Origin: Blasia pusilla
Lineage: Eukaryota
Assembly: GCA_050084515.1 (NCBI GenBank)
Contig: CM114271.1
Location: 8,494,001 to 8,558,000, forward strand
Reading direction: 5' to 3'
DNA: 64,000 nt
Below the pieces are notes generated by a model. That model was not told where the DNA came from. It searched no databases and saw nothing but the letters and a program-made list of their open reading frames with translations. Each line of letters begins with the position of its first letter. Positions within the stretch are counted from its first letter, which is position 1. The translations under genes were made by a program, and so were the position numbers. Below, in pieces: positions 5,591 to 49,559 of the stretch.

Positions 5591-5596
5591 CAATTG

Positions 5597-22128: not shown

Positions 22129-22138
22129 ATCTTATGAT

Positions 22139-22155: not shown

Positions 22156-22171
22156 AGAGTTTGTTGCTATA

Positions 22172-25300: not shown

Positions 25301-27116
25301 TTGAGCTCCTGAAACTCAGGTGTAGGCGCAAAAAGACCGTGAATAGTAGAAGGTTTGTTGATAATTTTGGGGGTGTGATTTTGCATTCTCTCTCGCCATT
25401 TGTTAACAATTAGTGAACTTCCTAATACTTCGTTCTGGACTAAGACATCGGATGGAGTAAATAGTGGTAGTTCTTCAAGAGTAATTGAGAGGTTGGGAAC
25501 AACTTCCGGGAGAGACTTTGTATGGTTGTCAAATTGGCGCTTCCAATGTTTGTTGACATAGTCGATCTCCTCGCTCATCTGATGATCGAAATTCTTGCGT
25601 GCTTCGTCGACTAATTCCTTGACATCTTCCGGGTCTAGCTGCACTTCGTTGAGCAGCTTCTGTTCTGCCTCGAAGATAACGATCCTCCCTATAGCCTCCG
25701 ACCATTGTGCCACTAAGTCTTTGTTTGTTTCTTGATGTTCTTGAAGCAACTTCGAAGACTAAGCATGTTGTGTGGCCAATTTCTTGAATTTGTTGCTAAT
25801 ACGATGCATTTGGTGTCGATATTGTTGAATCAGTTGCGAAGCTTCCCAGACCTGCAAAGCTAACTGATCAGCCCCACACTCCAGGTTAATCGCCAAGCTC
25901 TCCCATTGGCGTGCGTTCCGTGCTTTGTATTGACTCTCGACCAAGTCGCTTTGAACTTTGCGAAGCGTCGTCTTAGTGTCTTGGAGTTCTTGATCCCGCA
26001 ACTGAAGATTTGCTTCCGCCACTTTGCGTTGTGCTTCGTTCTCTGACAAAGATTGGGCCCTACAGTTGAGGTCATCAAGGTCTTGTAAATACTTGTCCAC
26101 CGCCGCTGTGTCTTCCAGGTGAACATGTTGTAGTTGATTCATGATCGGGACAGCCAAATTCAGGAACCACACCATGTCGTTGGATGTCTGGGACATGAGA
26201 CAAAGAGCAAGACGGTGATCGCTAGCACAAGACGTCTCGTCAGAGTCCTCTTGAGTTGCGGGCTCAGGTTCCAAGGGTGTTTCGAAATTGACTCTGCCGC
26301 GCTTTGGTCTTGGCAATTTGGTGAACTCCTCGGCCTTCCCTAAAGCCGAAGTATGCGGATGTTGCTTTGAGGCTGCTTCGCGTGGCGGGGTGACTTTACA
26401 GCTCCCACTAGTGACCGTTTTGGTCTTTATTGGCAAGCGAATGGAGTGACTTGCGACCAATCTAGCGCCTCATCGGCCGTCAATTCCTGCTTATGAATAT
26501 ACATATGGATCAAAAAAGGAGACATGAATGACTTCGTGCTCGGATGAAGTGATTCTAGCATTGCACGTACGTGCCCGTCCACAAAAGAAGCGAAGTCGAC
26601 TCCCGGTGCTTCGGGGTCCTGGTACTAATTCCAAAGGATATAGCACATCTTGACGAGCTTATTTTTGAGGTAGTAAGAACGAGCAGGATAAAACAAAGTC
26701 ATCATATGCTTGCAAAATTGTCCAAACAATGGCGGTGACAGCAAAGTAGCCTTGTAGCCATTCCTGCCAAGGAGATCAGACGTTACACAACCGAGTGCCA
26801 AAAAATCTTCGTGCTTTACCAGCAATTCGATGTCATACTCGTACTCTGGAGCATCCGAGAGCATAAACGTTGCTCGCTAGTCATCCGGCGTCCATTTTTG
26901 TGGCCGAGCTCGATACCGAAGACCCTCTCTTCAAAACTTGGCTGCTGCAGTCGAGGAATGAAGCTCCACGAGGAGTTCCCCGGATGTCAAGGTCCAATTT
27001 GCTTGAAAGAAAGTCGCCAAAGACCGTTCCTCAAGCGCTTCGACCAACTCTGGTGACAGCTTGACCATAGGCATGGCCGCACTTCGCAGAATGGGTGTGG
27101 AGTCTTCACAAGGCAT
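25300..27116 (-). pseudogene. Extra 3' ORF of gypsy copy 2 (coiled-coil rich, function unknown)
   Basis: ORFs 26931-27116, 26625-26864, 25759-26460 and 25237-25749 lie on the pol strand and are conserved with copy 1. Confidence 0.7.
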
Positions 27117-27449
27117 GCTAGTAGATCTCGGTGAACGCCCCGCTTTGGTCTACTATGCAACTTTGTGGTGACTCCGTCTATGAAAATACCCGTCCGATTA
27201 AGTAGGGACGCTTATATAGTCCCAGCGTTATGCGGGCTCTTGGCCTTGGCGCCGAGACTGCAATAGTCAATTTGGCGCTTCGCTCTTTTGCGAAGCTCAA
27301 AAACTCTCGCGCTTTGCGCCTCTGCGAAGCTCCCATACATTACGCTTTGCGCTTCTGCAAAGTTCCAATAACCTCGCGCTTCGCCCTTTTGCAAAGCTTC
27401 AGGCAGTCGCTCACCCCCTTCCCTTTGGTTTCAGTCCAGGTAGGGTTGA

Positions 27450-29748
27450 GGCTCATGATACCGCCGAACATGCATCCCATTCACACGAGTGGGCAGGGAT
27501 TCGCCTTGTAAGGTCCCCAACTGCAGTGATTCGTTATCATAGATGGCCAATACCCGGTAGGGTCCCATCCAGTTTAATTTTAACTTTCCGGGGAACTTTA
27601 GTCAACGGTTATCATACAATAGCACCAAGTCTCCAACACTTATAGATTGTGGCCGGAGATGTCGATCGTATCGTTGCTTGCGTTCATTTTGCACATGTTT
27701 GGTCTGGCGTAAAGCCAACATGCGTGCTTCCTCCAACGCAACTAAGGTCTCATTCCTTCCTTGGAAAACCTTGCCGACTGCCTCTGTTCTCGTTCCTTCC
27801 AACACTCGATAAGTGGTCAAAGCCCATTCAATAGGTGTTAAGGGATGAACGCCATAAGTCAGGAAGAACGGGGTATACTTTGTAGTAACCTTCTCGGCTA
27901 TTCGGTATGCCCATAATGCCACGGCGATTTTCATGTCCCAATCATAGGAATACGTTACCGTCAATCGATTCAATATTCGGCAGATCAGGCCGTTAGATTT
28001 TTCAGTCAACTCGTTGGCTTTAGGGTTGTAGGGCGTGGTCTTCCGATGCTTAATGAGAAAGTGTGACGTTAAAGACTAAATAGTTTGGTTCAGAAAATGG
28101 GTGCCTCAATCACTTACTAATTCCAATGGGCACCCATACCGGGTGATAATCATTTCGTATAAAAATTTGGCCACAGCCTCACTATCATCTCTGCGCGTCA
28201 CCACCGCCTCCACCATCTTGGTACAATAGTCGGTAGCTATCAAAATATATTTTTGCCTTGTGTGGCGAGTAGCAAGGGAAATGGGGCCAACAAAGTCAAT
28301 ACCCCATTTTTCAAACGGTGCTAGCGGCATGATGGGTATCAAAGGCCACCTTGAGGTAGCCGTTGGTCGACCTGCTCTTTGGCATGCATCACAACTTTGG
28401 ATAAAGTTACCTACATCTTTGTACATAATTGGCCACCAATAACGTGCGGACAAGATTTTCTTAACGGTATTTTTTACAGCGTAGTGTCCACCAGAATCAA
28501 CCGCATGCATGGCTCTTATGACGTGGAGGATTTCTTTTGCTTCCAAGCATGGCCGATATTATCCCCTGACATATCTCATATGGTCCTATCTTATGTAGAA
28601 AGAGTGCTCGTTCCTCCGCTGTCATAGGGGCGGGAAGTCGCAGAGTAATTAAGAAATGCAAAATATCTTCATAAAGGGATTGGCACAACCGGTCCTCCGT
28701 GATCTGGAACAGGTCTTCATCGGGAAAGGTGTCATCCACGGATTGTGTGAGGTCCGCGTTCGTCATCCTCAACCGGGAAAGAAAATCCGCGTTGGTATGA
28801 ACCTTGTCGGCCCGGGTAATGACATCAAATGTGAATTCTTGGAGTAACAGGATCCATCGCACAATGCGACCTGACAGGTCCGCCTTAATCATTAATGGTC
28901 GGAATGATCTACATGGAAGACAAACTCGTACCCTAATAAATAGTGACGGAACTTTTTGCACGAGAAGACCATGCCTAACGCCTCTCGTTCGGTAGTTGTA
29001 TATTTCTGTTCCGCTGAAGATAGTTGTCGGCCTGCTTAGTAAATCGGGAAATCATGTTTGTTCTCATCCAGCTGGCTGAGCACCACTCCAATGGCAAACG
29101 AGGATGTATCCACATATACGTGGAAGGGTTTGGTCCAATCGGGGGACCAAAGTACAGGAGCCTTTTGCAATGCTTCCTTTAAGGCGTCAAATGTTGCTTG
29201 GCAGGGTGGGGTCTACTCCCATTCGGTAGTTTTTTAAAATAATGTGGTAAGGGCTCCTGCTTTCACCGCGTAATCCCTAATAAACCATCGGTAATATTGG
29301 ACGTGTTCCAAGAATCCTCTCAATTCTCGGAGATTTTTGGGTGGTTCCAATGCGACGATAATATCCACCTTGGCCTTGTCGACTTCAATTCCTTGAGCCG
29401 ACACTCTGTGCCCCAACAAAATCCCTTGTTTATGGCAATATACGATTTTTCCAGATGGAGGGACAAATGCACTTCGCGACAACGAGCGAGGTTTAATTCT
29501 AATTTTTCCAAGTGTTCGGCTTATGTACTGAAGATACAAAAGTCATCTAGGAAAATTTCAACAAACTTCCGCAGATACTCTTGGAAGATGGAGATCATCA
29601 TCCGTTGGAAGGTGGCCGGCACATTGCACAACCCAAAGGGCATCACACGATATGCGAAAGTTCCCCCGTCCGTGGTGAAAGTTGTGAGGGGCCGATCTTT
29701 TTCTCGTATGGATACCTGGTTATAAGCCGAGTATCCATCCAAAAAGAT
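27450..29748 (-). pseudogene. Gypsy copy 2 pol, part 3 (RT C-terminus, RNase H, integrase)
   Basis: MPFGLCN, IFLDDFCIF, CDACQR, WGIDFVGP, ELVSD and ALWAYR motifs. Confidence 0.9.
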
Positions 29749-30747
29749 GGGGCTGGTATTCTGACAGGAGAGAGTAAGAGAGGAGAGTCTCTCTTAAAAA
29801 AAAAAGGCCAAATCCGCCTCCTCTCTTCAAAACTTTTTGACATATTTGAAATTTTTGTTTGCTTTAAAATTCAGGAAATCTTTAGAAGAGAGTATTTAGT
29901 GGTCCATATTTGGCCCTAAAAAACCTCCTCTTTCTCGGGGCGAGAAAAAAAGGAGACATCATAAGACCACCTAAACATTTTCCATCACTCTCCATGTGAG
30001 CCTAAGTTTCTTAACATTCCTGTCTCGGTCAACAAAAAGCGTGCCCTTGGTATTTTTGTTGGAGGACCACCCGGATGGGTACCTCTCTTTGCAGGATTGT
30101 TTGCATCATGGCCTCCCTAAATTGCCCCATAACCAACTTTTTCGGTTATGAATGGTGTCGACTCAAGACCAACTTTCTGAAATGTGAACAAATCAGATCC
30201 TTAGGTGAGAAACGAGAGTTGCACCCCTCCCAACCCGTAAGAAAGCTCACCATAAGAAACGAAATATTTTTAGAAGTGATTTTCTTCCACCCTGCACCCA
30301 CGACGATCTAACGGGTTGGGAATCCGAAATGGCAATCCGACAGGTAGTAGGAATCCTGCACATCTTAGACAAGAAAAGAAGCCTACAACTAGTTGGACGA
30401 ATGAAGGGAAACGAGCCAAAAGTCAAGAAGCCGCCACAATGCGCCAGAAGTTGGTCTCTGCGGGATAGAGTCCGATCACTCAAGCAGTCAACCTGTCGGA
30501 ATCCGACAGGTTTCTTGGAAATGGTTAAAAAGTTGCAGTGGGCAAAAAGCAAAAAGTCGGAATCATACGAGTTGCAGAATTGTAATTATGAGTAGCTAAA
30601 AGAACACAATCCACAAGTCCAAAAACATATTCCAGAAAACTTTTACAAACACTATTATGGGTTGAAAAAATCTCGTCCTTTATTACCTCCAAAGGAACCT
30701 CGGAATTGTACATTTCACCTAGTCTATGATTTCTTTAGCCTCGTCAT

Positions 30748-31008
30748 CTACAAATTTACTCCTAACTCTCCTCGGTGACAGTACCAAAGGAATGTCCTGG
30801 GATTCAAGTGGCTCCTTTGGCCGATTGTAGACGGGGATCGAAAATGTTGGCGAATTCGAGAGCCTTGGCCCCTCCCTAGGTACACCATAACGGTCCCATG
30901 TAACCTGTCTCGAGTCCCACCACCTTCCTCGGCAGTATACCTTGTACGCTCTGCAATGTGACACCCATCCAATATCAATATCTGCTCCGTCCCCGGTAAT
31001 ACCATTAT
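30748..31008 (-). CDS. Small conserved ORF (about 85 aa) downstream of the ParB-MTase gene
   Basis: The same frame and stop position are kept in diverged copy E (11959-12201), with several synonymous changes. Confidence 0.4.
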   Translation of the reverse strand: MMVLPGTEQILILDGCHIAERTRYTAEEGGGTRDRLHGTVMVYLGRGQGSRIRQHFRSPSTIGQRSHLNPRTFLWYCHRGELGVNL

Positions 31009-31533
31009 GGCAACCGCACAGGTAGAAGGAATCCAACACGTCTGAGAGAAGAAAAGAAGAAGCCTACGCCTGCCTTTACGAGTTGAGGGGAAGGTGCCAA
31101 GGGAAGAAGCCCACCAGACTGCCTCTTAAGTTGGACCAACAGGGAAAGGGTCTGATTAGGCAACCTGTCGGAATCAGACAGGTTGCCTGGAGGTGGTAAA
31201 AAGGGTGCAGTGGTCAAAAAGCGAAAAGTTGCAAGGAGGAGAAATCCGACGGGTTGCAGTGGTCATAAAGTGAAAGTTGCAAGCAGGAGAAATCCGACGG
31301 GTTGCAAAATAGAAGTCCGTGGAGTACATAGACGATCACATTCGTAAAGACAAAAAATGATCAGCAAACATTTACAAGCACCATCATCGATCGAAAAAAT
31401 CTTCTTCTTTATATCATCCAAAAAAAGCTCGGAACTGTACATTTGATCTATTCTATGAAATCTTTTGCCTCATTATCAAAAAACTCCCTACTCCAAACGC
31501 TGCAGTCAAGCTGGGTCGTTGAGTTCTTTGAAC

Positions 31534-34500
31534 TCACTCGTCATCGTCCGAGAGCTCTTGCAAAATCACTTTCGGCCTTGCCCTCCTGATTTTGGGAATC
31601 GTTGGAAGTGACGATGGAGTCACTACCAAGGGTGGCTCTGGAACCGGAGCTCTCGGCTTCGGTGGAGAGTTGTACGCCCCAACGAGCCTTTTGTATTCTG
31701 CCTTTGCCTCCTTGCAAAGGTCAAATAGTACCTGCCTTCCTCAGGCGAGAAGAATGTTCTGCCACTCGCGGGCGCCTTTGATACTTGCCCTGAAAAGTCC
31801 CACTAAGTCGAACACCAAGTCACCCGGCCTTGAGCACGGACTCAATGAGCGTTTGAATCGGGTGGCGACTTTTCCCTTCCTCCCGTAAGTGGGTATCTTG
31901 TCTTGCATGTAAATTCCTGGGGGGGAATTGTACAAACTATCTAAGCTGTACCCATCTGAGCATGGATCCACAGGATCCCGGATCTTGAACAGCTGGAAAT
32001 TGTGCTTGGGCCGATCGAAGCAGTAGACGTAGGAGTGGTCCATTTGTAAATCAGCACGTTGGAAACAATGTCAGAAACTAAAGAAGTCGCCTTGAGAAGA
32101 TTTTCAATAACAGACTTTGGATCAACCTGTCGGAGTCTGACGGGTTGTTTTGTCCCATATCAACCCATCGGAACCCGACGGGTTGCAGTTGCTTTTGGAT
32201 TTTCCCAGTTGATTTTGGTTTTTGGATGCAACCCGTCGGAAGGCGACGGGTTGCTAGCCTAGAGCAACCCATGCTGGCTTGAGAGCAACCCATCGCTATC
32301 AGGCGGGTTGCATCCAAAACCAAAATAAACGGGAAAACTCCAAAAGCAATCGCAACCCGTCGGTTCGACGGAGTTTGCGTACACCGCGTTTTCCCTGTGT
32401 ATGTGGGAAAGATGCAACCGTCGAAAACCGACGGGTTGCTCTCACCGAGCATGGGTCGCTCTAAACCCGACAAGAACCCGCCTTCCGACGGGTTACTCAC
32501 GGACAAAAAAAACCCAGATTGACTCTCATTCTACACATCATTATAAGATAATTGAAATTATTGTACAGGAATTGAGCCTTACCCGAATCTGACTCGTCGC
32601 GGATCGGAGTGGGTACTCGTTTTTATGATCCACGACAGCCGTCCTCCACTTTAGCGACCTCTTGGCGACTGGAGGTTGAAGAGCTCGCCCTCGCTCCCTC
32701 CATCAATACCAAGAAGCAGCCCCTGTCACTCGGATAGGCGTCGCAAAGGAGAACAAAAGTGCAACTGGTCATAAGTGAGCGGCACATTCCACTCAGTACC
32801 TCGTCCGCCGGATTTTCGCCCCACAATCGCAACCTCGAGGGCAGATCGGCGATCAAGAGATCCACCGCAACCTCTTCCACCACTCCATTCACCGTCCAGG
32901 CAACGTGCCCGTTTTGTTGGAGCTTCCGCCCTAGCGTTGTCAATTTTTGATGGCGGTTGTCGACGCTTGAGAATCTATTCGGCTCATCGAAGAAAGAGGT
33001 GAATCGAAGGAGGACGCTTGTCGGGTCGTTGTTTGTCTGTCTTCCCAAGGATGATGGGTGTATTCTCCTTGGGACAACCTGTGCACCTCTCGCTCGCTTC
33101 TCTCCCTAGTCAGGGACGGCTTGTCGGGGTTTCTATGACCTCGGATTCGTGGCGTTTTCTTCGCCGAGGACTTGGTCCGACCCTCTCTCCCGCTTTCGTC
33201 CGGACGATTCCGCCTCGGCCTCTCATCTTGAGGCTCTCTTTGGGAAGTCTCGGCCTCTGAATTTTTCCCTCCCCTCGCCTTGCCTTTGAGACCCATTTGT
33301 GGATTTGTCTTTGGCTGTCCGGACCTTGGAAGCCAACTCGGCTATCTCGTGGGCTGCTCTTCTGCATCTCCTCGAAGAAGTCTTCAGCGGACGAAATTGG
33401 GGATGTCGTCTTGTCTGAGGCCCTTTGCATCATGAAGCACTCGTAATTCCTTATCCGTGATGTCTTCAGGATCGTTGAAGTCGAGCCAAATGGGGCAATT
33501 CTCCACCTCCCAATCGGACATGTGCTGCCCCATCTCCACGTCGTACATGGAGAATGTCTCTGCATCCGGCGGCGAAGCCCACAATTTCAAGGCTGCTGGT
33601 AATTTTCCCCACGTACCTGCGTTCTTACATTGGATGAGGTACCTGAAGACCATCCGTTGGGCAGCTTTTAGTTGAACAGAATCGGCCGTCTGCTCCTGTA
33701 GATCTCGCTTCTTCTTCGCTTGATCCCGTTTGTTCCCCTCTACTTCTTTGTCAAGCTCTGCCTGAGGGAGGACGCAAACCTTGAACATGGTCTTGAATCC
33801 AGGGTTTTTGGTTGGCTTGTCCCGGATGTCGTGGAGCCAAACTTGTAGTCTCCAGAATTTTCAAGGTTTGCTTCCGGCGGAATGGGCTCTAATCTTCGAG
33901 CTCGCTTGCGGACCGTCGCCCAAAGACGGACTTCCCGATTACCGCAACGCGCCCCGTAACGACCATTCGCGTAGCTAATGCGAGATCATCGGATCGGACA
34001 CACCCTAAGGATGGTGTGCCGCCCTCTTCCGGGCCTCTCAACCTCGAGATCGATTTTCATCGATCGTATCCTCTGAACTCGCTAATCCCGGATAACGCAA
34101 AACGATGCACGCGATCCGGCGACACTTTCTCCCCAATCCGACCATGCGGATCTTCATCCCTCTTCCGACGCTTGATAATCGCCTTGACTCCTTGTAGAAC
34201 TCCGGACCAAGTTTGGGGTTGAGAATGCTCATGTATCGCTGCATCTTGCTCGCCCAGCGTATTTTTTGCAGCAGATACAAACGGCTTGATGAATTTGGCG
34301 CGCCAGACGCAGATACCTTCTCCCTCCGCTCGGCTCCATTGCGGCGCTTTTTTCTTGCGGCTTTGTATCTTCGACCAAAGCAAAGGATGGTTACTGGCTT
34401 TGCATCTTGAGAAATAAACTTGTTTGCCCAAGTTTTCTTCTTAATCTGAGCACCCTTTGCAAGCATCATCTGATTGACAAGGGCATCGCCAAGAACCCCA

Positions 34501-36100
34501 GTACTCTCCCGGTGCGTCGTAAGCACCTTCCTCACCCGATCGCAGTCCTGGATCCAATGGTGGGTGACATTCCCTTCCGATACAATCCTGCACATCCAAA
34601 CTCAACCCGTCAGGAAATTACATGGGTTCCTACAACCCGTCGGACTCCAACGGGTCGTCACAGCTCAAGGTCGGATTCTAGCAACAAGCTAAATGATGCA
34701 ACCCATCGGAGTCCGACGGATTGCATTCAGATAAGCAAACCGTCGGACTCCGACGGTTTGCTTTGGGCCAAAAACTAGTCAAATCTATGTTCAATCAAAC
34801 AAGTCGTCGGAGTCCGACGAGTTGCTTTCGGCAAAAACAAACCTAACCCATTCATCAATCGAGCAACTCGTCGGAGTTCGACGAGTTGAGAAAGTGTTAA
34901 AGATACTCACGTGTTCATGGCATGCATTGCCATCTCCACCGTCGCCATGTGATGAGGGTATGGGTGAAGGACCACTGCCTTCACGCAGAAATGTGCCTCC
35001 AATGAGTTGGGCCGCTCCTCTGCAAATTTGGTCCACGCCATGAACCTGTGATTTCCATCCTAGATGAAGAAATGCAGATTCCTCATCCAGCTGAATTCCG
35101 TGCCCTCAACTTGCCTTCTGAAGTCCTGGTCTCGCATCCTTCAGAATGTGTCGAGCTTTTCCAAGTCCTCCTCGGTAACCACAGCTTGGGTTCCATGCTT
35201 GTCGTAAGGCTGAACATAGAAGGGAGGAAAGCTGTCGACGTAGGATGTTGTCGCCGCCGATTGTTTTAGCTTCGCGATGTCCTCGTCGGACTAAATTTCG
35301 CGGACGTATTCCATTGTCCGCAATCGGTAGAGTGGAATCCTCGGGGCGTTGTGGCCCTCCATGAGTGCCATCTGCTTTACCACTTGTCAGAACCGGGACA
35401 AGAATAAGCTACACTAGAATCCCAATGAATTGCAATTCTCATAATTAAAAAAACCCAGAACCTCTCTTACCCGCTCGAAAATGGGGTCGGTTTCTTGACC
35501 AGCTAACTTGTCTGCGACAGAGGCTGGCAAATCGACTGGAAACTCGTCGATCCGATAGAGGTCGATGACCTCTGCCAGGCTTGGAGTCGAGAATGACCGC
35601 TCTCCGGCTTCTTCGGCCATGTCCACCATCTCCACGTTGGCGGTCCTCATGACCTCGTCGTCATCGATTTCAACTTCTCTTGTTTCCACTATGTTGATTG
35701 TGTCCCCGGACTTTGTGGGGGACATTTTTCGCATCTCAACACTTGCGGTTGGACGGGCTGGGCTATCGTCAATGGCTATCACTTTTTCCCTCCTCGCTTT
35801 AGCCAATTCTGCCCTCCTCACCGACGCGTCAAGACGCTTCTTTTCTCTCTTTTCGTCGGCGATCCTTTTCTTCAAGGCCTGCGACGTCTCGGCCTCTTTG
35901 TTCTCTTTATCTAGCGCCTCTTGAACACGTCTTGCAAGAAGCACTTGGTTATGCATCTCCGCTTCCCTTTCCCGCTCCTCGATTTCCTGCTGCCTAATTT
36001 CATTCGCCGAACGAGGCCCAGGAGAAGCTGACGTAGGAGTCCTAATGGACTTGGGAGTGAAGCTCCCAGACTTGTTGGCTTGTGATTTTTTCCTCGTCAT
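31534..36100 (-). pseudogene. Four-exon ParB/Srx-domain plus amino-methyltransferase-like gene, copy B
   Basis: Exons are about 36100-35471, 35383-34911, 34587-32583 and 32043-31534, with GT donors and compatible phases. Exon 2 reads IPL.RL..M..VR....DIAKLK...FFI*DGNHRFMAW. VDLLIADLPS and GDLVFDLVGL motifs are present. Confidence 0.78.
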
Positions 36101-36374
36101 TTTTGCCGGAAATGCCTCCACCTATGTCCACGACAAATTCCTTGATCAGTCGCCTTGCTGATGTCGAGATGGGAGCTCGAATCGCCTTGATGGTTAGCTC
36201 GAATCGTCCCGCTATCGCTCGGTCGAACCGTCTCGCTCTCGTTCCCTCCTATCGACTCGCGATGTGTTGCCGTGTGAAATGCCCCTTCGTATCTGATCAG
36301 CTGCTGCGTGGGAGAGTGAGGAGTGAGGAATGAAGATCGCGAAATGAGAAACCGGAAATGAGCAATTTCTGCCC

Positions 36375-36382
36375 TATTTATA
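36375..36382 (-). promoter_or_regulatory. Putative TATA box of the ParB-MTase gene
   Basis: TATAAATA on the minus strand at the edge of the palindrome array. Copy C has TATAAAC near 49464-49470. Confidence 0.45.
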
Positions 36383-36469
36383 CTTTTCTAGCCGTTGGGC
36401 TGACCGTTGGGTCCCGTCCTCCTTTCGACGGCGACGTGCCGGATGTTACGGAAGTCCGAACGTGAAAAA

Positions 36470-37190
36470 TGGCAGCCCGTCGAAGTCCGACAGGTGGCGC
36501 GGCTCCGCCATCCTGGGTACGTCGCCACGTGTGCGAGCAACCCGTCGGAGACCGACGGGTCGAGCGCCTCCGTCGTCTTGGAAAAAGAACGCGAGGTACC
36601 CGCGCAACCCGTCGGAGACCAACATGTTGCGCGCCTCCACCATCCTGGGTACGTCCCCACATGCGCAAGCAACCCGTCGAAGACCGACGGGTTGAGCGCC
36701 TCCGTCGTCTTCGGAAAACAACGCAAGGTACCCGCGCAACCCGTCGAAGCCCGACATGTTGCGCGCCTCCGCCGTGTTTGGGACGGGAACAGGACCTATC
36801 TTGGGCAATCCGTCGGAGACCGTTGGGTTGCACGCTTCCCTCATCAAGGGTTAGGAACGAGGGCTTCCCGTGCAAGTCGTCGGAGTCTGGCTGGCTGCAC
36901 CACAAGGCGAGGCCCTTGCGCAACCCGTTGGACGGCGACGGGTTGCACGCTTCGCCGTCTTTGGGCTAAAAGGCGAGGCACCCGCGACACTCGTCGGGAA
37001 CAGACGGTTTGCACGCCTCCGGCATCTTCAGGCAAGAAGGATCAGTATCCGAACAACTCGTCGGAGAGCGACGGGTTGCTCGCTTCGAAAATGTTTCGCA
37101 GAAGCGTGCAACCTGTCCGATGCCGACGGGTTGCAGGCTTCGGTTAGCTTCGGGTAATTTCTGAGTTACCAGGACTCCGACGGGTTCCAA
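36470..37190. repeat. Palindrome array in the divergent intergenic region of copy B
   Basis: Copies start near 36473, 36538, 36605, 36670, 36737, 36806, 36873, 36921, 36987, 37054 and 37109, with a 65-69 bp period and a 132-bp dimer. Confidence 0.9.
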
Positions 37191-37343
37191 GTGTGATTCG
37201 CAACCCTCTGCTTCCCAAATCCGGTAACATATTGCAATAGAATTGAATGTGTTACAGAATTGGATCCATTGTGTCAGACAATGTCACCCACCGAATTCAT
37301 CTTGTCAATAAAAAACTGTCAAGAGTATCTGTTTCCTATTCAC

Positions 37344-37350
37344 TATAAAT
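37344..37350 (+). promoter_or_regulatory. Putative TATA box of the transposase gene
   Basis: TATAAAT about 50 bp upstream of ATG 37396, conserved at about 50430. Confidence 0.5.
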
Positions 37351-37395
37351 TAAATATTCTCATTCTCAGTCTCCTCCCGTTGGAATCTTCTTGGA

Positions 37396-40300
37396 ATGGA
37401 TAATTATGTTAAGCTCACTTGTGGCAGTCATCTGGCGGCCCTTCCTCAATCGGAAATCATTCGACTCCAAGCTCGTGAGTCTTTCAGAGCAGTGGATGAA
37501 AATTTTCTATCTGTTCGATTTCTTCTTCAAATTGGAACCATCTTTGTATCCAAAGATGTTAGGGTGGATGGTACGGAAGACATAATAGGTGAGACGGTCC
37601 AGCCAGTGACCTCAGACCGTAAAGTATGGAATCTCCTACCTCTACCAAATGGTCAATACAGAGTTTACGGCCCTTTCGACCGATTTGTTTCCCAAGTAGA
37701 CGGTCTAGAATTTCCTAGTGCTCCGAGCTCTACTTTTGCAACTCCAAGCTCTGCAGATCTGGCTTCGACTCCAACTTCGCACGCTCATAACAATGTTGTT
37801 TTTCCAGAAGAGATTCCGGATGTTATCAACCTCGGTGGATCTGCTTTCGGGCACCAATCGGGCCTCGTCCGCCTACTCGTTCTCTTGCGAGTATCGGCAA
37901 TAGTTTGCTTTTCGTCTCGCCCTTGAAAATTTTCAAGCACATTCTTGTCGACAAGCTGCCGCCCACGCACGATGGTAATTGCATTTTTGAGTTGCCTCCA
38001 CTTGCCGCTCTGCTCAAAAGAAGGATGGAGGGCGCTGAAGGGTATGGATGAAAAGTCTCGATTGTCATCGATGGTGCAGGCTTCAACGGACGGTGCTTCA
38101 ATTCAGATGGTCCTTGGATTGTCTCCCGCCGCCAATGCGTGGGAGCCTTGGAGTGTAGAAGTCCAAAGCATGCCCGTTTCTAGAGCGCAATGGCGAGTCA
38201 ATACGCCGCAATTCCCTCCCAAGAATGCAGAAACTCCATACGAGGTCGGTGCCACCATACCGGGGAGGCCATCGATGTCCTCATTGTCGCATCGCCCTTC
38301 TGCGTTGGAGCGTGTCTGCATACATATTTTTCATTGTCCACGACTTGGGCTCCACGCCGAGTATACAAGGCTGGCTGTCCATGTTGGCTCCCACACTCAT
38401 CCTGTGACCGATGCAATTCAAAGCCACATCAAGGAGGATGTGGCGAAGAAAGTAGCCGAGGTCTACAGAAACTCTCCGTGTTCAAAGCCCGGAGTGATCA
38501 AGCTCACAACGGCATCACAAATTTGTGAACAATTGCTTGGAATCCTTGGACAGGGCAAGATCACGGCGGTTGAGGAGAAACAACTCTGGGAAAATCTCGC
38601 ATTTCTCGCGGATCCTGAATGCTTCCGAATTTGCGTCGATACGAGTTCGGATGGAAAGACGGGCGAAATGGATGCCATCGCTAATCAAGGCCAACTTTAG
38701 ATTTCCATTCATTCAGAGATGGCAGTTCATGGGCCAAGGAGGCAAGGGATCCAGGGCCTATGTCTTTGAAATGTCAACCACAGGTCCGTCGAGTGGCCTT
38801 GATCTTATAGATCGAATGAGGGAAGGGGAAGATCTTTACGGGAGTTGGGTAAGCTTTGATATTTGCTCTGAGTCTTTGAACAGATGGTTGGCACGGGTGC
38901 TCACATTTATGACCATGTGGAGAAGGGACTCAAAACTATATTTGTCTGTGAAGTAAAGGCGTAAGACGCGTTGGCGGTTTGAAGATGTCTTTGGTTACTC
39001 TTCTTGGAGGTGGTGAAGGAAAACAAAAGGCCACCTCCGGAAATTTATGGGTTCATGGCGGACAATGCACAACCTGGGTGGATTGCTATCCGGGAAGTGT
39101 TCAGGGTGAGAGGTTCAACCGGAGAGGGAAAGGTCGGATGCTTTCCATTGGCAAATGATCTGTGACCCGGTACACCAAATCTTGCATCAAGGAGAATAAG
39201 AGGACAGAGCATGTCACTCTACTCCAACGCTGCAGGGATAGCAAAACCTTGAAGCAGGCCATGGAATGCCAGGAAGAACTTCATGGGTGGTGGAGGAAGC
39301 ATGCGATTGAGGGGAAGTACAAAGAGTTGTGCTCTTGGTTGAGTCGGTGGACTGTACGTATGAGACAATGGGGAAACTTCATGCGGCAGGTGAGTTCACT
39401 ATTTTGTCTTGTCAAGCTCACACTGAGAATTGTTTGTAAAGTTGTAGCTCAGGATGAGAAGCGTGGGAATTATATGGATTTCAAACCCAAGAAACCAAGC
39501 TAGCTGTCGGATGCGACGGGTTGCCCAAGTGTGCAACCCGACGGAAACTAACGGGTTGCCCAAGGGTGCAACCCGACGGAAACCGACGGGTTGCCCGAGT
39601 GTGCAACCCGACGGAAACTGACGGGTTGCCCAAGGGTGCAACCCGACGGAAACCGACGGGTTGCATCCAGATGTTTGGTGTCGTCCCGAGTGTGCAACCC
39701 ATCGGGACCCGACGGGTCCCAGAGTTGTTCATGGGATGCCGCCTTGCAACCCGTCGGGTTCCGACGGGTTGCAGTAGGTGGGTTTAAGGTTACAACACGT
39801 CGGGACCCGACGGGTCGAAGAGTCGTTCATGGGATGCCTCGAGCCTGCAACCCGTCTGGTTCCAACAGGTCGCTTATTTCTTTGACTTCAAGGTTATTTA
39901 CGTTCCCTTCTAACATTGCCGTCGTTGCAGGGATTGAACGTTCATGAAAATGCCCTCCGTCCCAACACAAGTGGAGCTGAAAGTGTTCATTCCTCTTGGA
40001 GGTCGTCACAAGCATGCCAACGAATTTCACTTGTGGAGGCATGCCAACAAGACCAGGCAAGAGCAATGCTACAGTCTGCATCATCCCATATCTTTCTCAC
40101 AAAAGGCATAACAAAAGGAAAAGGGCCGTCGATCTACGAGCTCTATGTCGATGTATTTGTGAGATCTCAGTGATGAAAAATTGTATGTCGAAGCCTTCAA
40201 CCGGTGCGTAGCTGGAACTCCACTCGAGCAAGACGTACACATAGGTGGGGATATTCGTGGGCGGGTTTCAAGACGTCCCATACAGATGGTGGTAGAGTAG

Positions 40301-41431
40301 TCCGAACGAGACTCGTGGAGACCAGATAAGTATCTTGACTTCAGGCAGGTGAAGAGGCAACATCGAGGAACGAATCAGGTGATTGATTTGGATGAGGAAA
40401 TTACACCGCCCAGGTATTCGGGGACCTCGGACCCGTCCCAAATCCGTGATGGAGTTACTTCTCCAAAATCAGTGAATGTTTTATTTCAAAAGCCCTCCGT
40501 TGCTGGAAGTTCGCAACATCCTGTCACTAGGGTGGTTCAACAATATGGGATTCCGGTAGTGGAGGTGGATTGCAACCTAAAACGGTGGCATATATCTCGG
40601 AGCAACCCAGGACATGGACCTACTTGCAGGGCAGGATCTGATGACATTAGGAGAGCATGCGGCACTTTCCTAAATAAGAACTGTACAAGGACTGGACGAC
40701 CTCTGCCTGGGTTTTGGGGACTCAAAACCTTTGATCGTTTCACGAGGACCGGGGATCAATTGAAGTACTTCTTCTGCCCAAATGAATCTTGCGCTTTCCG
40801 GAAGTCTTATCCGGCTGCCATTGGAGCTCCCGTGAATATCCCCACGATTTGGCCCATCGCCGCAGGCACGAACTGCACTCAAGACGAAGTGGACAATCTT
40901 ACAAGTGCCGGTTTGGACTCAGACGGGGAAGTTCGAGCATGTTTGCATTACTGAGAGACCTTCGTGATTTAGTATTCAACCCAAGATTGATGTCAACATG
41001 TACCCGGAGAAGGTGGATGATCTCAATCCATTATTTCTGTTTGAGTCCAAAAATGGGGTGAAGAGAAACAGAATGTGCAGGCCAACGGTGGAGAGAGCAA
41101 AGCGAATTGCATCAGCTCGGGAGGAAAAAATGGAGATCATTGCCACGAAAGATGTCTTGAGTGGCAATGGAATAGGAAGGATGTATTGGGTCAGGACAAC
41201 CACTGTAAATTCAAGTGTCATAGGGGTGTATGTGGTGCACATCTGTTGCTTTCCCACATGTTCATGTGATGACTTTGTCCAAAGAGAGACAAGTGGCAAA
41301 AGGTATTTCCTTGTAAGCACATGTACTATGTGTTCTTTGGTAGTTTTAAGAGAGTCGGAGGTAGGAGTAGGAATCCACCAACCAATTCATCCCTCAAAGA
41401 AGTGCGAAGTATTTTAAACAAACCACTTTGA
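37396..41431 (+). pseudogene. MULE DDE transposase with C-terminal SWIM zinc finger, copy B (intron 39390-39930)
   Basis: WVSFDIC (D, about 38858), FMAD (D, about 39061), DAFHW at the CxxH position, NTSGAESVHS (E, about 39979), and SWIM CSC...CKHMYY. Phase-0 intron CAG|GTGAGT...TTGCAG|GGA. Frameshifted. Confidence 0.85.
39500..39870. repeat. Palindrome array in the transposase intron, including four 35-bp tandem units
   Basis: CAACCCGACGGAAACYGACGGGTTG plus a 10-bp linker at 39534, 39569, 39604 and 39639. Confidence 0.9.
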
Positions 41432-41841
41432 GGATGCAAAATGAGGTTTTAGATTGTACTTTTATTTTTCCTCAACCTTCACTTTGAGCTTGAACTCTAT
41501 TCAGCCCGCGGAAAATGATAGATTTTTCCCAGACCTTGGATGGAAAAAGTGATTGGTTCCACACTTATGATTCCACTGATTTTTCAGTTTTCTAAATTTT
41601 GTGCAATTTGCAACTCGTCGGACTCACAGGGGTTGCCAAAATATGGAAGAGGAAAAAAAAACTGTGGGATTGTTGAATAAATGAACAAAAAAGTGCAAAA
41701 AAATTCACACAAAAAGTTTCCTCTCTTCAACCCAACGGAAACTCTCTTAAAAAAAAGTATCTATTTCGGTTGAAGGTAGTTTCCTCTCTCCTCTCTCCTC
41801 TCTTCCTCTCTTCCTCTCTTCCTCTCCTCTTACCGCACCTC

Positions 41842-42613
41842 CAAAAAGATATAACGCTCGTGGCCGGCGACTTTGTCCAAAATACTGTTAGTTAAAGGTA
41901 GGGGGTGATGGTCCTTTAAGGTGGCCGAATTCAATTTCCGATAATCCTGGCATACTCTGATTTTTCCCGTTTTTTTTTTGGGTACAATTACAATGGGCGA
42001 CACCCATTCGTTGCTTAACACAGGATAAATTATTCCTGCTTCGAGATGTTGGTCGATTTCGTCCTTGACTAACAACGAGTACTTTGGGTTGAGGCGATAC
42101 TGCCTCATCCGTACCGGGACCGCACCTTCTTTTAGGTCAATTCGGTGTTCACCATACCATGTTGGAATTCCTGTCATTTCATCCATGGAGTACGCAAACA
42201 CATCCAAATACTCAAACAATAACCTTTTGTACTTAATGAGTTCGGTTGGAGACAAATCCGCCAAGAGGCGTACAGACTTCTGACCTGTAATTAAGACCTG
42301 CACGTAGTCTTTTTCTTGAACCATATTTTCTGTGAACTCGAATGTGCTATGACCCAGCTTCTCTTCCTCTCGGGTTGACCTCTGTTTGCTAGGTACCGAC
42401 TTCTTGTCTATTTCATAACATTCTAAATAATACACATTATACGAGGACTCCGTAGCTGTAATGCGCTCTTGATCTGACATATAGCCTTCATCCGTCGGTG
42501 GCGTTTCTCCTTGGGGTGGTTGTGATTTCCACGATAGCTTGATGAGTCGTTTTGAGACCTGGTCCGGAGCCTGGAATGTGAATCGTCTCCTTTTCCAGTC
42601 CGTAGTCACTCTC
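41842..42613 (-). pseudogene. Gypsy copy 2 pol, part 2 (RT N-terminus) between two MULE insertions
   Basis: WVSPIVIVPKK...RVCQDYRKLN...RYIFL, bounded by TSDs. Confidence 0.92.
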
Positions 42614-44409
42614 GGGGGCTGGTATTCTGGCAGGAGAGAGTAAGAGAGGAGAGGAAGAGAGGAAGAGAGGAGAGTCTCTCTTCAAAAAAAAGGGCCAAAT
42701 CCGCCTCCTCTCTTCAAAATTTTTTGACATATTTGAAATTTTTGTTTGCTTTCAAATTCAAGAAATCTTTAGAAGAGAGTAGATAGTGGTCCACATTTGG
42801 CCCTAAAAAAACCTCCTCTTTCTTGGGGGCGAGAAAAAAGGAGACATCATAAGACCACCCTAAACATTTTTCCATCATTGTCCATGTGAGCCTAAGTTTC
42901 TTAACATTCCCTGTATCGGTCAACAAAAAGCAGTGCCCTTGATATTTTTGTTGGAGGACCACCCGGATGGGTACCTCTCTTTTTGCAGGGATTTTTGCCT
43001 GCATCATGGCCTCCCCTAAATTGCCCCATAACCAACTTTCTGTCAATTATGAATGGTGTCAGCTCAAGACCAACTTTCTGAAATGTGAAAAACTCAGATC
43101 CTAAGGCTCAGAAACCGAGAAGCTGCACCCCTCCCAACCCGTAAGAAAGCTCACCATAAGAAACGAACGATTTTTAGAAGTGATTTTCTTCCACCCTGCA
43201 CCCACGACAATCTAACGGGTTGGGAATCCGAAATGGCAATCCGACAGGTAGTAGGAATCTTGCACATCTTAGACAAGAAAAGAAGCCTGCAACTACTTGG
43301 ACGAATGAAGGGGAACGAGCCAAAAGTCAAGAAGCCCGCCACAATGCGTCAGAAGTTGGTCTCACCAGGATAGAGTCCGATCACTCAAGCAGTCAACCTC
43401 TCGGAATCCGAGAGGTTGCCTGGAAATGGTTAAAAAGTTGCAGTGGGCAAAAAGCAAAAAGTCGGAATCATACGGGTTGCAGAATTGTAATTCTGAGTAG
43501 CTAAAAGAACACAATCCACAAGTCCAAAACATATTCCAGAAAACTTTTACAAACACCATTATGGGTTGAAAAATCTCGCCCTTTATTACCTCCGAAGGAA
43601 CCTCGAAATGTACATTGAACCTAGTCTATGATTTCTTCACCTCGTCATCTACAAATTTACTCCTAACTCTCCTCGGTGATGCAGTACCAAAGGAATGTCC
43701 TGGGATTTAAGTGGCTCCTCCGGCGATTGTAGACGGGGATCGAAAATGTTGGCGAGTCGAGAGCCTTGGCCCCCCTAGGTACACCATAACGGTCCCATGT
43801 AACCTGTCTCGAGTCCCACCGCCTTCCTCGGTAGTATACCTTGTACGCTCTGCAATGTGACACCCATCCAATATCAATATCTGCTCCGTCCCCGGTAATA
43901 CCACCATGGCAACCGCACAGGTAGAAGGAATCCAACACGTCTAAGAGAAGAAAAGAAGCCTACGCCTGCCTTTACGAGTTGAGGGGAAGGTGCCAAGGGA
44001 AGAAGCCCGCTGATCTGCGTGATCCGAAGGGTCGATCGGCAACTGTCGGAATCAGACAGGTTGCCTAGAGGTGGTAAAAAGGGTCCAGTGGTCAAGAAGC
44101 GAAAAGTTGCAAGGAGGAGAAGTCCGACGGGTTGCAGTGGTCATAAAGTGAAAATTGCAAGCATGAGAAATCCGACGGGTTGCAAAGTAGAAGACCGTGG
44201 AGTACATAGACGATCACATTCGAAAAGACAAAATGATCAGCAAACATTTACAAGCACCACCATCGATCGAAAAAATCTTCTGCTTTATATCATCCGAAAA
44301 AAGCTCGGAACTGTACATTTGATCTATTCTATGAAATCTTTTGCCTCATTATCAAAAAACTCCCTACTCCAAACGCTGCAGTCAAGCTGGGTCGTTGAGT
44401 TCTTTGAAC

Positions 44410-49188: not shown

Positions 49189-49559
49189 TTTTTCCGGAAA
49201 TGCCTCCACCTATGCCCACGAAAAATCCCTTGATCAGTTGCCTTGCTGATGTCGAGATGGGAGCTCGTCTCGCCTTGATGGTTAGCTCGAATCGTCCCGA
49301 TATCGCTCGGTCGAACCGTCTCGCTCTCGTTCCCTCCTATCGACTCGCGATATGTCGCTGCGTGAAATGCCCCTTCGTATCTGATCAGCTACTGCGTGGG
49401 AGAGTGAGGAGTGAGGAATGAAGATCGCGAAATGAGAAACTGGAAATGAGCGATTTCTGCCCTGTTTATACTTTTCTAGCCGTTGGGCTGACCGTTGGGT
49501 CCCGTCGTCCTTTCGACGGCCACGTGCCGGATGTTACGGAAGTCTGGACGTGAAAAATC

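Follow-up and report, generated by a model that had tools for sequence, protein, structure and literature searches.

A palindrome array in Blasia pusilla forms part of a probable Mutator-like transposon and is a candidate binding site for an element-encoded protein

The palindrome array at positions 36473–37133 of the window, by which we mean the whole 64-kb stretch of Blasia pusilla DNA that was analyzed, belongs to a DNA transposon of ~12 kb that is probably Mutator-like. Its motif is confined to this one transposon family within the one 64-kb locus. From the sequence, we give a probability of roughly one half to the interpretation that the arrays of this element are binding sites for an element-encoded dimeric protein that recognizes, regulates or marks the element's own copies. 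In a genome scan, the array should be catalogued among the parts of a transposon instead of as a regulatory region shared by two host genes. The features at the center of the element are as follows.

36473–37133, no strand: central array with 11 palindromic sites, fifth of the seven clusters of transposon copy 2
37176–37187, minus strand: solitary half-site bordering the central array on the right, from the motif scan
36375–36382, minus strand: left-facing TATAAATA box, 90 bp from the first palindrome
37344–37350, plus strand: right-facing TATAAAT box, with the transposase ATG (37396) 46 bp further downstream

The unit of the central array is a 27-bp palindrome, GCAACCCGTCGGA-N-TCCGACGGGTTGC, with 13-bp arms. 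The original prediction of about 11 palindrome copies was borne out by 11 full sites and one half-site. When compared with the 25-mer CAACCCGTCGGA-N-TCCGACGGGTTG, the array yielded 11 matches with 2–7 mismatches in 24 positions, starting at 36473, 36538, 36605, 36670, 36737, 36806, 36873, 36921, 36987, 37054 and 37109. Half-sites with two or fewer mismatches number 189 in the 64-kb window, against 4.16 ± 1.97 in 100 shuffles (largest 10). The centers of successive sites in the array are separated by 65, 67, 65, 67, 69, 67, 48, 66, 67 and 55 bp, and the 65–69 bp spacing that had been proposed therefore holds for eight of the ten intervals but not for the two of 48 and 55 bp. Likewise, the proposed 132-bp higher-order dimer is limited to the first five units and does not describe the array as a whole, because the 132-bp period reported by Tandem Repeats Finder spans 36472–36770 only (2.3 copies, 87% matches).

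The palindrome is better conserved than its spacers, as had been anticipated. In pairwise comparisons among the 11 units, identity was 74–79% over the 24 arm positions, whereas it was 44–45% over all spacer columns. Within the spacers, the 10 nt immediately 3′ of the palindrome reach 63% between-unit identity, and the remainder stands at 38%. The claim of CG richness also proved correct, with a GC content of 62% and a CpG observed/expected ratio of 1.26–1.37 versus 0.91 in the whole element. Searches of the 64-kb window returned no Rfam families and, with ARAGORN, no tRNAs. Among the matches listed in a literature search on the motif's two 11-mers, nothing was related by title.

The array is carried by one of three long copies of the same element in the window, which also holds a short derivative.

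1–5271, minus strand: transposon copy 1, inverted and truncated by the window start, 88–90% identical to copies 2 and 3
29749–41841, plus strand: transposon copy 2, 12,093 bp, with shared ends and a 9-bp duplication, inserted in a gypsy element
42614–54055, plus strand: transposon copy 3, 11,442 bp, 92–93% identical to copy 2
55494–56090, plus strand: non-autonomous derivative, 597 bp, with the same termini as the full element

Copy 2 begins with GGGGCTGGTATTCTG... and ends with ...CTCTTACCGCACCTC, and is flanked by a perfect 9-bp target-site duplication, CAAAAAGAT (29740–29748 and 41842–41850). Copy 3 is inserted in the same gypsy element as copy 2, is without ~200 bp and ~640 bp that are present in copy 2, and has its own perfect 9-bp duplication, GTCACTCTC (42605–42613 and 54056–54064). 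The 9-bp duplication of the derivative is CTTCAATTC (55485–55493 and 56091–56099). Perfect 9-bp duplications and common termini therefore accompany three of the three insertions for which both ends are visible, and an empty-site sequence in a related gypsy copy spans the insertion points of both full copies. On the strength of these three observations, we regard the element as a real transposon. An older subfamily of the element was found by BLAST at about 78–80% identity overall. Retroelement domains were detected by Pfam in the part of the window that lies outside the transposon.

Target-site duplications of Mutator/MULE elements are ~9 bp long, with a range of 8–11 bp, and the length observed here (9 bp in three of three insertions) fits that superfamily. 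The left and right termini share only an imperfect GA-rich inverted repeat. Its score in copy 3 was 51, above all 200 shuffles (maximum 42), and in copy 2 it was 28, which is not above the shuffles (maximum 29). We also considered the EnSpm/CACTA class, including Plavaka, for an element whose termini read GGGGCTGG... and ...GCACCTC. EnSpm/CACTA elements have 3-bp target-site duplications and CACTA-type termini, and this assignment was dropped because the duplications here are 9 bp.

Each complete copy carries seven motif clusters, which lie between ORF blocks as read from the ORF maps. In addition to the central array, we mapped the following clusters in copy 2, together with the copy 3 counterpart of the central array.

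30231–30513, no strand: cluster 1, left subterminal, 5 half-sites
31034–31304, no strand: cluster 2, 5 half-sites
32123–32495, no strand: cluster 3, 10 half-sites, adjoining the methylase-like ORF on its upstream side
34603–34888, no strand: cluster 4, an array with a 64-bp period, 11 half-sites
39512–39859, no strand: cluster 6, including an array with a 35-bp period whose palindromes are only 8 bp apart
41611–41739, no strand: cluster 7, right subterminal, ~100–230 bp from the end
49561–50221, no strand: paralogue of the central array in copy 3, with all 11 units, from the motif scan

All 98 full sites in the 64-kb window reside in element-derived DNA, as do 188 of the 189 half-sites, the sole outlier being a half-site at 54187 with one mismatch. 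Within the window, the motif is not abundant in unrelated sequences, given that ~21.5 kb of retroelement DNA (5272–9000, 12764–29749 and 41832–42613) contains none. The clusters of copy 1 lie at 15–687, 2831–3066, 3889–4032 and 4430–4454. Counterparts of cluster 4 are longer in copy 3 (47431–47981) and in copy 1 (15–687), and by copy the 64-bp array holds 5, 8 and at least 10 full sites. Spacings differ among clusters (35, 48, 55–57 and 63–69 bp), and a logo of 66 sites displays no conservation past the flanking G/C. The recurrence of one palindrome in clusters that are spaced so differently speaks for selection on its sequence and not on repetition alone. In the derivative, palindromes survive at 55670 and 55865, along with a half-site at 55778, within a filling that is otherwise unrelated and AT-rich. 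At three of three orthologous sites in the older subfamily, the palindrome is the better-kept part, with matches in 64 of 78 of its columns (82%) versus 66–76% elsewhere, in what is a small sample.

Two further properties of the sites were considered and set aside. The spacings named above have no common phase, which removes helical phasing of the sites as a candidate. An excess of C-to-T changes at arm positions 5 and 6 (28 each among 189 half-sites) had suggested host CG/CHG methylation, but this reading was dropped because the arrays copy variants, such that sequences and not events were counted.

TATA-like boxes had been predicted on either side of the central array, and both are present at the predicted positions, with the array sitting between outward-facing boxes at 36375 and 37344. 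The copy 3 counterpart of the TATAAATA box reads TATAAACA. The TATAAAT box, a sequence that occurs only six times in the window with both strands counted, is kept in copy 3 at 50430. The right-hand gene of the divergent pair is the transposase. With seven clusters per element and a single transposon family carrying them in the window, the motif cannot be described as a feature of one bidirectional promoter, and its explanation has therefore to be sought at the level of the transposon instead of the two-gene locus. As for the proposal that the motif is the site of a dimeric protein, the long, well-kept palindrome with its free central base is of the kind that such a protein would be expected to use, but of the ligand named for it only one half was seen. 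Three genes and ORFs of the element are listed here.

37396–39503, plus strand: transposase gene, frame interrupted in copy 2, with an RNase-H-like catalytic core and 153 homologues
31537–32070, minus strand: DNA-methylase-like ORF, split in this copy, that corresponds to the C-terminal portion of PF01555, sub-threshold in Pfam
35414–36100, minus strand: 228-aa ORF, charged and coiled-coil-like by eye, immediately left of the array

The transposase is RNase-H-like and probably of the Mutator/IS256 type. Its 153 relatives come from an exhaustive search of representative proteins, and the first transposase ORF, which starts with the ATG at 37396, aligns colinearly with the N-terminal ends of these transposase-family homologues; the protein possibly continues into Cys-rich ORFs at 40301–41417. 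In the PDB, an AF2 model of the transposase (pLDDT 82.8) is matched best by ISCth4, a transposase of the IS256 family (E = 0.019, prob 0.84). Further PDB matches are RNase-H-fold proteins, and none reaches E ≤ 0.001. IS256 is kin to MULE, and the nearest language-model clusters of the transposase are MULE/ZSWIM (0.93). A word-indexed protein search with the transposase ORF returned nothing among longer or near-length proteins. The Pfam MULE profile matched no window ORF, and among 150 homologues scanned it gave one weak match (P0127, E = 0.0057, below the cut-off). Pfam SWIM, FAR1 and DBD_Tnp_Mut gave no matches even at E ≤ 10, leaving the zinc-finger/SWIM signature of MULEs unobserved. The transposase-family profile produced only a chance calmodulin match among PDB sequences (E = 0.074). 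Note that inspection by eye revealed a C-x5-C...H-x-H pattern ahead of the catalytic core and a CxC...C pattern at 40968–41417, which we record as a lead only.

Better copies of the methylase-like ORF lie at 44410–44952 (minus strand) and 3261–3659 (plus strand). PF01555 matched 3261–3656 with E = 8.3e-4 and 19.8 bits and 44413–44952 with E = 0.027, both below the 26.7-bit cut-off, and the matches cover only profile positions 165–220 of 221. Of the 30 nearest atlas clusters of this ORF, 29 are N6_N4_Mtase. No NCBIfam match was obtained, and tblastn found no match in 50,697 phage records. The ligand had originally been envisaged as a ParB-MTase protein. Its methylase half is represented by this ORF below the Pfam cut-off, but its ParB half found no counterpart in Pfam, solved structures or folding. 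Specifically, no ParB domain was detected by Pfam on element ORFs or by a PDB sequence search (phmmer), and the ORF at 46836–47429, which is ParB-like by eye alone, gave an AF2 model with a pLDDT of 42.6 from an alignment of three paralogues only.

When Pfam was run over 13 + 50 + 14 + 47 + 72 window ORFs, the weak methylase match was the only one within the element. DNA-binding Pfam families were found in 0 of 13, 0 of 47 (beyond the methylase) and 0 of 72 element ORFs, and neither SET nor 2OG oxygenase was detected by Pfam in element ORFs (SET in three copies). The arrays at 34603–34888 and 36473–37133 and their paralogues abut accessory ORFs. For the 228-aa ORF beside the central array, a word-indexed protein search gave no homologue and Pfam no family. 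Because the accessory ORFs have no Pfam family, save for the sub-threshold methylase match, we do not claim a VANC-like gene.

The system is a decaying relic in the window's two complete copies. A comparison of copy 2 with copy 3 gave 15 differences over 264 arm positions (5.7%) and 29 over 428 spacer positions (6.8%; Fisher p = 0.63), and no third-position excess was found in ORF codons. Given this equal drift of arms and spacers and the lack of a third-position excess, these copies exhibit no sign of constraint. Compensatory evolution of the arms was likewise considered and rejected. Symmetric double changes numbered 20 versus 14 expected but are not independent, and there is no clear co-variation because many of the double changes are copies of one event.

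The mechanism that we propose envisages an element with a transposase on its right arm and several accessory ORFs on its left, one of them methylase-like, and with palindrome clusters that lie between the ORF blocks, subterminally on either side and between the divergent TATA boxes. The binder would be either an accessory protein or the DNA-binding domain of the transposase itself. Once bound, this protein would single out copies of its own element and go on to activate them, relieve their silencing or mark them chemically. The central array would double as an upstream element common to the two divergent promoters. We consider it rather improbable that the palindrome is more specifically a eukaryotic counterpart of parS, onto which a ParB-like clamp with a PF01555-type methylase loads as a dimer. 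If true, this reading would imply a 6mA/4mC mark or a silencing block across the protein's own transposon, and hence a Mutator-like element with a private, sequence-addressed epigenetic identity. The center of the consensus site is GANTC, the sequence recognized by PF01555 enzymes of the CcrM/HinfI type; 39 of the 98 sites read so, including only 1 of 11 and 2 of 11 in the central arrays.

Several other explanations of the arrays have to be weighed against this proposal. The palindromes might be transposase sites for transposition itself, serving end recognition, synapsis and cleavage, with the internal arrays being surplus or a transposase sink. Sites do occur near the ends: the one at 41610 is ~205 bp short of the right end, the one at 30488 is ~740 bp inside the left end, and the 597-bp derivative retains sites ~175–200 bp from each end. 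The AtMu1c transposase binds its own ends, and the 12-bp subterminal repeats of Muta1 are reported to raise transposase binding and excision (PMC5499845). However, most sites are internal. Five of the seven clusters lie >1 kb inward of whichever end is closer, the central array is ~6.7 kb away from the left end and ~4.7 kb away from the right one, and the outermost ~100 bp at each end are GA-rich and palindrome-free. We judge this explanation unlikely, and it overlaps with our preferred one if the binder is the transposase. A quite improbable view holds that the arrays are functionless minisatellites produced by slippage or by hairpin-promoted replication errors, with the palindrome seeding amplification. 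Such an origin would be in keeping with the variable copy number of the 64-bp array, with the 132-bp higher-order period as a recent unit duplication, with the equal decay of arms and spacers since copies 2 and 3 split, and with the folding of a single strand of the array, which is far better than that of shuffles (z = −7.5). Slippage accounts for copy number but not for sequence fidelity across independent clusters, and the 27-mer is kept across seven differently spaced clusters with nothing conserved past its flanking bases, at orthologous sites in the older subfamily and at isolated sites in the derivative.

Recruitment of a host transcription factor, which would make the array an ordinary enhancer or a CpG-island-like bidirectional promoter, is in our judgment very unlikely. 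Palindromes suit a dimeric factor, and the flanking divergent TATA boxes and the high GC and CpG content agree with a promoter of this type. Nevertheless, there are no full sites outside the element family in the window, which is itself without evident host genes, and clusters are also found in subterminal positions and in the gene-free derivative. ORFs of 134–247 aa run through the array in all but one of the six frames, but five simultaneously open frames are expected of a stop-poor, GC-rich repeat and none of eight array ORFs has a Pfam match, so that a protein-coding array can be given hardly any weight.

To our knowledge, self-addressing by means of dense arrays of private words has been established experimentally only in Arabidopsis (VANC, TnpA and the AtMu1 transposase). 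A 2025 red-alga preprint and a study of the brown alga Ectocarpus, as described below, provide only hints that self-addressing extends to giant algal transposons, those with accessory genes of the ParB-like and methylase kinds. The Blasia locus is a cleanly delimited case, with exact ends, seven clusters, a 27-bp palindrome, a derivative and two subfamilies. With this clean delimitation, binding assays and methylation calling from long reads could test the idea directly.

Accessory genes for a PF01555 methylase and a ParB-like protein are described in red-algal giant transposons, where the ParB-like gene adjoins "tandem arrays of inverted repeats" that are proposed binding sites, and homologous accessory genes are reported in Mutator elements of another red alga (bioRxiv 10.1101/2025.02.11.637652). 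The likeness to these elements, going by their description, consists of a large DNA transposon with several accessory ORFs and with inverted-repeat arrays beside them, and possibly also of a PF01555-type methylase, which in Blasia is a sub-threshold match. However, the red-algal elements are described as Plavaka (EnSpm) of 17–19 kb, whereas the Blasia element is ~12 kb with 9-bp duplications. In the algal accounts, the methylase is fused to SET and the ParB-like protein to a 2OG oxygenase, whereas neither SET, oxygenase nor ParB was detected among the Blasia element ORFs. The PAG3 ParB-like and 2OG oxygenase assignments are themselves given as HHpred matches only (e = 0.29 and 0.016), and array function is presented as hypothetical there as well (bioRxiv 10.1101/2025.02.11.637652). 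A ParB-methyltransferase accessory protein is also reported for the Ectocarpus Sola1 element (PMC12477816). The Bostrychia preprint likens its arrays to bacterial/plasmid ParB-parS (bioRxiv 10.1101/2025.02.11.637652). The Blasia sites resemble parS, which is bound by dimeric ParB, in being palindromic and often tandem, but no ParB domain was found in the Blasia element and there is no sign of partition. An exact scan with the 25-mer over 596 billion bases of genome sequence, from 185,579 species of bacteria and archaea, gave no matches.

Muta1, a MULE of Aedes aegypti, is described as having 8–9 bp duplications and a non-autonomous derivative that retains its 12-bp repeats (PMC5499845). It shares with the Blasia element the duplication length, the keeping of repeats in a derivative and probably the Mutator superfamily. 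In contrast, the Muta1 repeats are reported as direct 12-mers inside a 145-bp terminal inverted repeat, whereas the Blasia motif is a 27-bp palindrome that is mostly internal. TnpA is reported to bind clustered motifs at the ends of Spm and to de-methylate and activate cognate copies, with its targeting set by motif density and not by a single site (bioRxiv 10.64898/2026.08.24.746577). The AtMu1c transposase alone, according to the same preprint, binds its own ends and hypomethylates and activates cognate copies (bioRxiv 10.64898/2026.08.24.746577). En/Spm and the Blasia element have in common dense clusters of a family-specific motif, bound by an element-encoded protein in the former and putatively so in the latter, but TnpA sites lie only at Spm ends whereas the Blasia sites are mostly internal. 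The target-site duplication of Spm is 3 bp, versus 9 bp in the Blasia element.

In VANDAL21 (Hi), an Arabidopsis element of the Mutator superfamily, a short family-specific motif that has built up in tandem in the noncoding stretches between genes is described as being bound by the element's own VANC21, which acts on cognate copies only (PMC5735166; PMC10398659). Binding and methylation loss have been demonstrated for VANC, whereas both are predictions for the Blasia element, and the VANC motif, a non-palindromic word of 9 bases, differs from the 27-bp palindrome with 13-bp arms in Blasia. Nevertheless, the two share a transposase with accessory genes in what is for Blasia a probable Mutator-type element, family-specific motif clusters between ORF blocks and, as seen here, an array copy number that varies among related copies.

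The palindrome array between a minus-strand TATA-like box at 36375–36382 and a plus-strand TATAAAT at 37344–37350 is part of the anatomy of a transposon: a signature palindrome forms seven clusters in the element, and this array is the central cluster, lying in the divergent promoter region. Both boxes were found where the original prediction had placed them, and the array between them (36470–37190) proved to hold 11 matches to CAACCCGTCGGA-N-TCCGACGGGTTG, each with 2 to 7 mismatches in 24 positions.

Features of the central array
36473, 36538, 36605, 36670, 36737, 36806, 36873, 36921, 36987, 37054, 37109: starts of the 11 sites
37176–37187: lone half-site (one palindrome arm)
36520–36535, 36650–36665, 49608–49623, 49740–49755: CACGTG-bearing spacer stretches, the last two in the corresponding array of copy 3

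Site spacings are, in order, 65, 67, 65, 67, 69, 67, 48, 66, 67, and 55 bp, and thus the predicted 65 to 69 bp holds for eight of the ten intervals. Tandem Repeats Finder reports a 132-bp period only at 36472–36770 (2.3 copies, 87% matches); therefore, the higher-order dimer proposed for the whole array covers its first five units and not the rest. The claim that the palindrome is conserved better than its spacers was borne out by unit alignment (pairwise identity 74% in arms versus 44% in spacers), with spacer identity of 63% in the first 10 nt after the palindrome and 38% in the remainder. The CG richness likewise stood (62% GC, CpG observed/expected 1.26). With up to two mismatches allowed, the window holds 189 half-sites compared with 4.16 ± 1.97 in shuffles, and the array is real and non-random. 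Alternate spacers carry the stretch CCACGTG(T/C)GCGAG, itself a small palindromic core.

Self-comparison revealed a unit of ~12 kb three times in the window, and this unit represents a cut-and-paste DNA transposon family.

Element-derived sequences
1–5271: copy 1, inverted, cut off by the window edge
9064–10551 and 10566–12763: older-subfamily fragments, 78–80% identical to the element; one is inverted and one has an intact left terminus at 10566
29749–41841: copy 2
42614–54055: copy 3, 92–93% identical to copy 2
55494–56090: non-autonomous derivative, 597 bp, with termini as in copies 2 and 3 and the duplication CTTCAATTC
29749–29800, 41780–41841, 42614–42680, 53980–54055: GA/CT-rich termini

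Copies 2 and 3 start with GGGGCTGGTATTCTG, end with CTCTTAYCGCACCTC, are flanked by perfect 9-bp duplications (CAAAAAGAT and GTCACTCTC, respectively), and interrupt the same gypsy retroelement, of which a related copy at 16325–20479 is uninterrupted over both insertion points. The shared termini, duplications, and interruption rule out a duplicated host locus. Because each copy has its own 9-bp duplication, the two are independent insertions, which excludes one segmental duplication as their origin. They are separated by 770 bp, share one orientation, and sit within one gypsy retroelement, which would reflect local hopping or a preferred target. Left and right element ends match each other only as an imperfect, GA-rich inverted repeat; the termini are mostly microsatellite-like (AGAGAGGA or TCCTCTC units), giving weak, low-complexity inverted repeats. 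The derivative's body is AT-rich and internally self-complementary. The bulk of the remaining window consists of copia-type and gypsy-type retroelement fragments (7885–8971, 20692–24186, 27605–29051, and 54796–63253) with gag, integrase, RNase H, and RT domains recognized by Pfam, and no host genes are evident in the window.

The palindrome is not local to this promoter region: each full copy carries seven clusters, located in the two subterminal regions and between blocks of ORFs.

Palindrome clusters
Element positions ~480–870, 1290–1570, 2370–2750, 4820–5370, 6720–7660 (the central array), 9760–10110, 11200–11990: the seven clusters, copies 2 and 3 pooled
15–687 (copy 1), 34603–34888 (copy 2), 47431–47981 (copy 3): 64-bp-period array
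39514–39664 and 52418–52498: 35-bp-period array, palindromes just 8 bp apart

All 98 full sites (both arms, up to 7 mismatches in 26) in the window lie in element DNA. The half-sites are distributed among copy 1 (37), the old fragments (13), copy 2 (64), copy 3 (69), and the derivative (5), with one elsewhere, at 54187, and none in 5272–9000, 12764–29749, or 41832–42613. A logo of 66 sites reads GCAACCCGTCGGA-N-TCCGACGGGTTGC, with a free centre and no conservation outside 27 bp, and site spacings vary among clusters (35, 48, 55–57, and 63–69 bp). In the older subfamily, the palindrome is recognizable at all three alignable sites, where 64 of 78 positions are identical versus 66–76% elsewhere, albeit in a small sample; decayed palindromes occur at orthologous places in its fragments. 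The derivative retains two palindromes (55670 and 55865) and one half-site (55778) amid otherwise unrelated AT-rich filling. The 25-mer had no exact match in bacterial and archaeal genomes totalling 596 billion bases, and a borrowed prokaryotic site was therefore ruled out. At the centre of the consensus palindrome is GANTC, which CcrM/HinfI-type PF01555 methylases target. This centre is present in 39 of the 98 full sites. Within the 64-bp arrays of copies 2 and 3 it occurs in 12 of 13 sites, compared with only 1/11 and 2/11 sites of the central arrays at 36473–37133 and 49561–50221.

The plus-strand ORFs right of the central array are the transposase. A search of 1.84 billion representative proteins with the 281-aa ORF at 51221–52063 yielded 153 relatives at E ≤ 0.001, of which the best show 38–41% identity. 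These are colinear with 37492–39401 (one additionally with 40532–40666), and the aligned span includes the first ORF, whose ATG at 37396 lies 46 bp past the TATA box. Pfam recognized neither the window ORFs of this region nor any of 150 relatives, one of which gave a sub-threshold MULE match (E = 0.0057). AlphaFold, given 43 relatives as input, produced a confident model (pLDDT 82.8). Among PDB structures, this model matches the IS256-family ISCth4 transposase best (E = 0.019, probability 0.84) and RNase-H-fold proteins next, with no PDB match at E ≤ 0.001. In the language-model comparison, the closest clusters are MULE/ZSWIM (0.93). Given this fold and cluster evidence and the 9-bp duplications, the element is probably, although not provenly, Mutator-like. 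The 35-bp-period array sits between the transposase ORF end (39503) and Cys-rich ORFs (40301–41417) to which one homologue (P0050) also aligns, and from this placement it may lie within an intron of the transposase gene.

Left-arm ORFs
35414–36100: charged ORF of 228 aa, adjoining the central array on its left
2153–2752 (plus), 32626–33105 (minus), 45364–45804 (minus): putative upstream methylase ORF, identified by eye
46836–47429 (minus), 737–1408 (plus), 34041–34601 (minus): candidate ParB-like ORF, beginning right at the 64-bp array
563–1486, 34293–34775, 46926–47564: strand opposite the candidate ParB-like ORF, open in all three copies

Just one left-arm ORF is recognizable, corresponding to the C-terminal part of the DNA methylase family PF01555 (copy 1, E = 8.3e-4; copy 3, E = 0.027). 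Both matches score below the curated cut-off, and N6_N4_Mtase accounts for 29 of the ORF's 30 nearest atlas clusters. Upstream of it, with motif cluster 3 between, a stretch of the putative methylase ORF resembles by eye the PF01555 motif-IV region and following strands; Pfam is silent on this ORF. Homologue and family searches with the 228-aa ORF were both empty. By eye, the candidate ParB-like ORF contains QDCDR, a stretch resembling the DGxHR of ParB/Srx domains; its fold is of low confidence (pLDDT 42.6) and its PDB search gave no matches. Of the "ParB-MTase" protein that had been envisaged as the ligand, a methylase-like remnant was thus seen, but no ParB domain was found in the window by Pfam, NCBIfam, PDB sequence search, or fold.

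Copies 2 and 3 are both defective, with interrupted reading frames; copy 3 lacks ~200 bp and ~640 bp relative to copy 2, and substitutions between them show no codon-position bias. Between these two copies, arms and spacers have drifted alike (15/264 versus 29/428 differences, Fisher p = 0.63), and symmetric double changes in arms (20 observed versus 14 expected) are not independent events. Therefore, arm conservation stems from the active lineage that produced the copies rather than from constraint at this locus, and the evidence argues against a present-day function of the array here.

Because the palindrome is kept across independent clusters, confined to the family within the window, and retained in a geneless derivative, it is best explained as a site, used by the transposon itself, for predicted protein binding. 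A dimeric protein encoded by the element would bind the arrays, recognize cognate copies, and then regulate or mark them; we give this reading a probability of about 0.5. Sites needed solely for transposition would suit the subterminal clusters, and other clusters lie between ORF blocks; we consider this unlikely. The 64-bp array holds 5 full sites in copy 2, 8 in copy 3, and at least 10 in copy 1, and thus undergoes rapid expansion and contraction, as a passive minisatellite might. The central array numbers 11 units wherever it is in view (copies 2 and 3). Since the palindrome is kept across clusters of differing spacing, a passive origin seems doubtful, more so than a role in transposition alone. 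Sites for a host factor, which could also be dimeric, are slightly less probable still, given confinement to the family within the window. That the array is coding sequence is scarcely credible.

Binding of cognate arrays by an element-encoded protein would have precedents. VANC21 is reported to bind a 9-base motif accumulated as tandem repeats in VANDAL21 non-coding regions, where it removes methylation (PMC5735166; PMC10398659). One preprint describes dense motif clusters at Spm ends bound by TnpA, and an AtMu1c transposase that alone accomplishes end binding, hypomethylation, and activation of cognate copies (bioRxiv 10.64898/2026.08.24.746577), and Muta1 subterminal repeats are reported to increase transposase binding and excision (PMC5499845). 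Self-addressing motif arrays in transposons are demonstrated in Arabidopsis and only hypothesized in algae. The "ParB-MTase" idea is in line with reports of a ParB-methyltransferase accessory protein in an Ectocarpus Sola1 element (PMC12477816) and of ParB-HTH-methylase fusions in chlorophytes and chytrids (PMC4738411). The closest precedent to the Blasia element is provided by the giant transposons of the red alga Bostrychia moritziana, for which a preprint describes three accessory genes: one unknown, one with a PF01555 methylase and SET, and one with a ParB-like domain and 2OG oxygenase visible to HHpred only. According to the same preprint, homologous accessory genes occur in Chondrus crispus Mutator elements, and "tandem arrays of inverted repeats" adjoin the Bostrychia ParB-like gene and are proposed as binding sites of its product (bioRxiv 10.1101/2025.02.11.637652).
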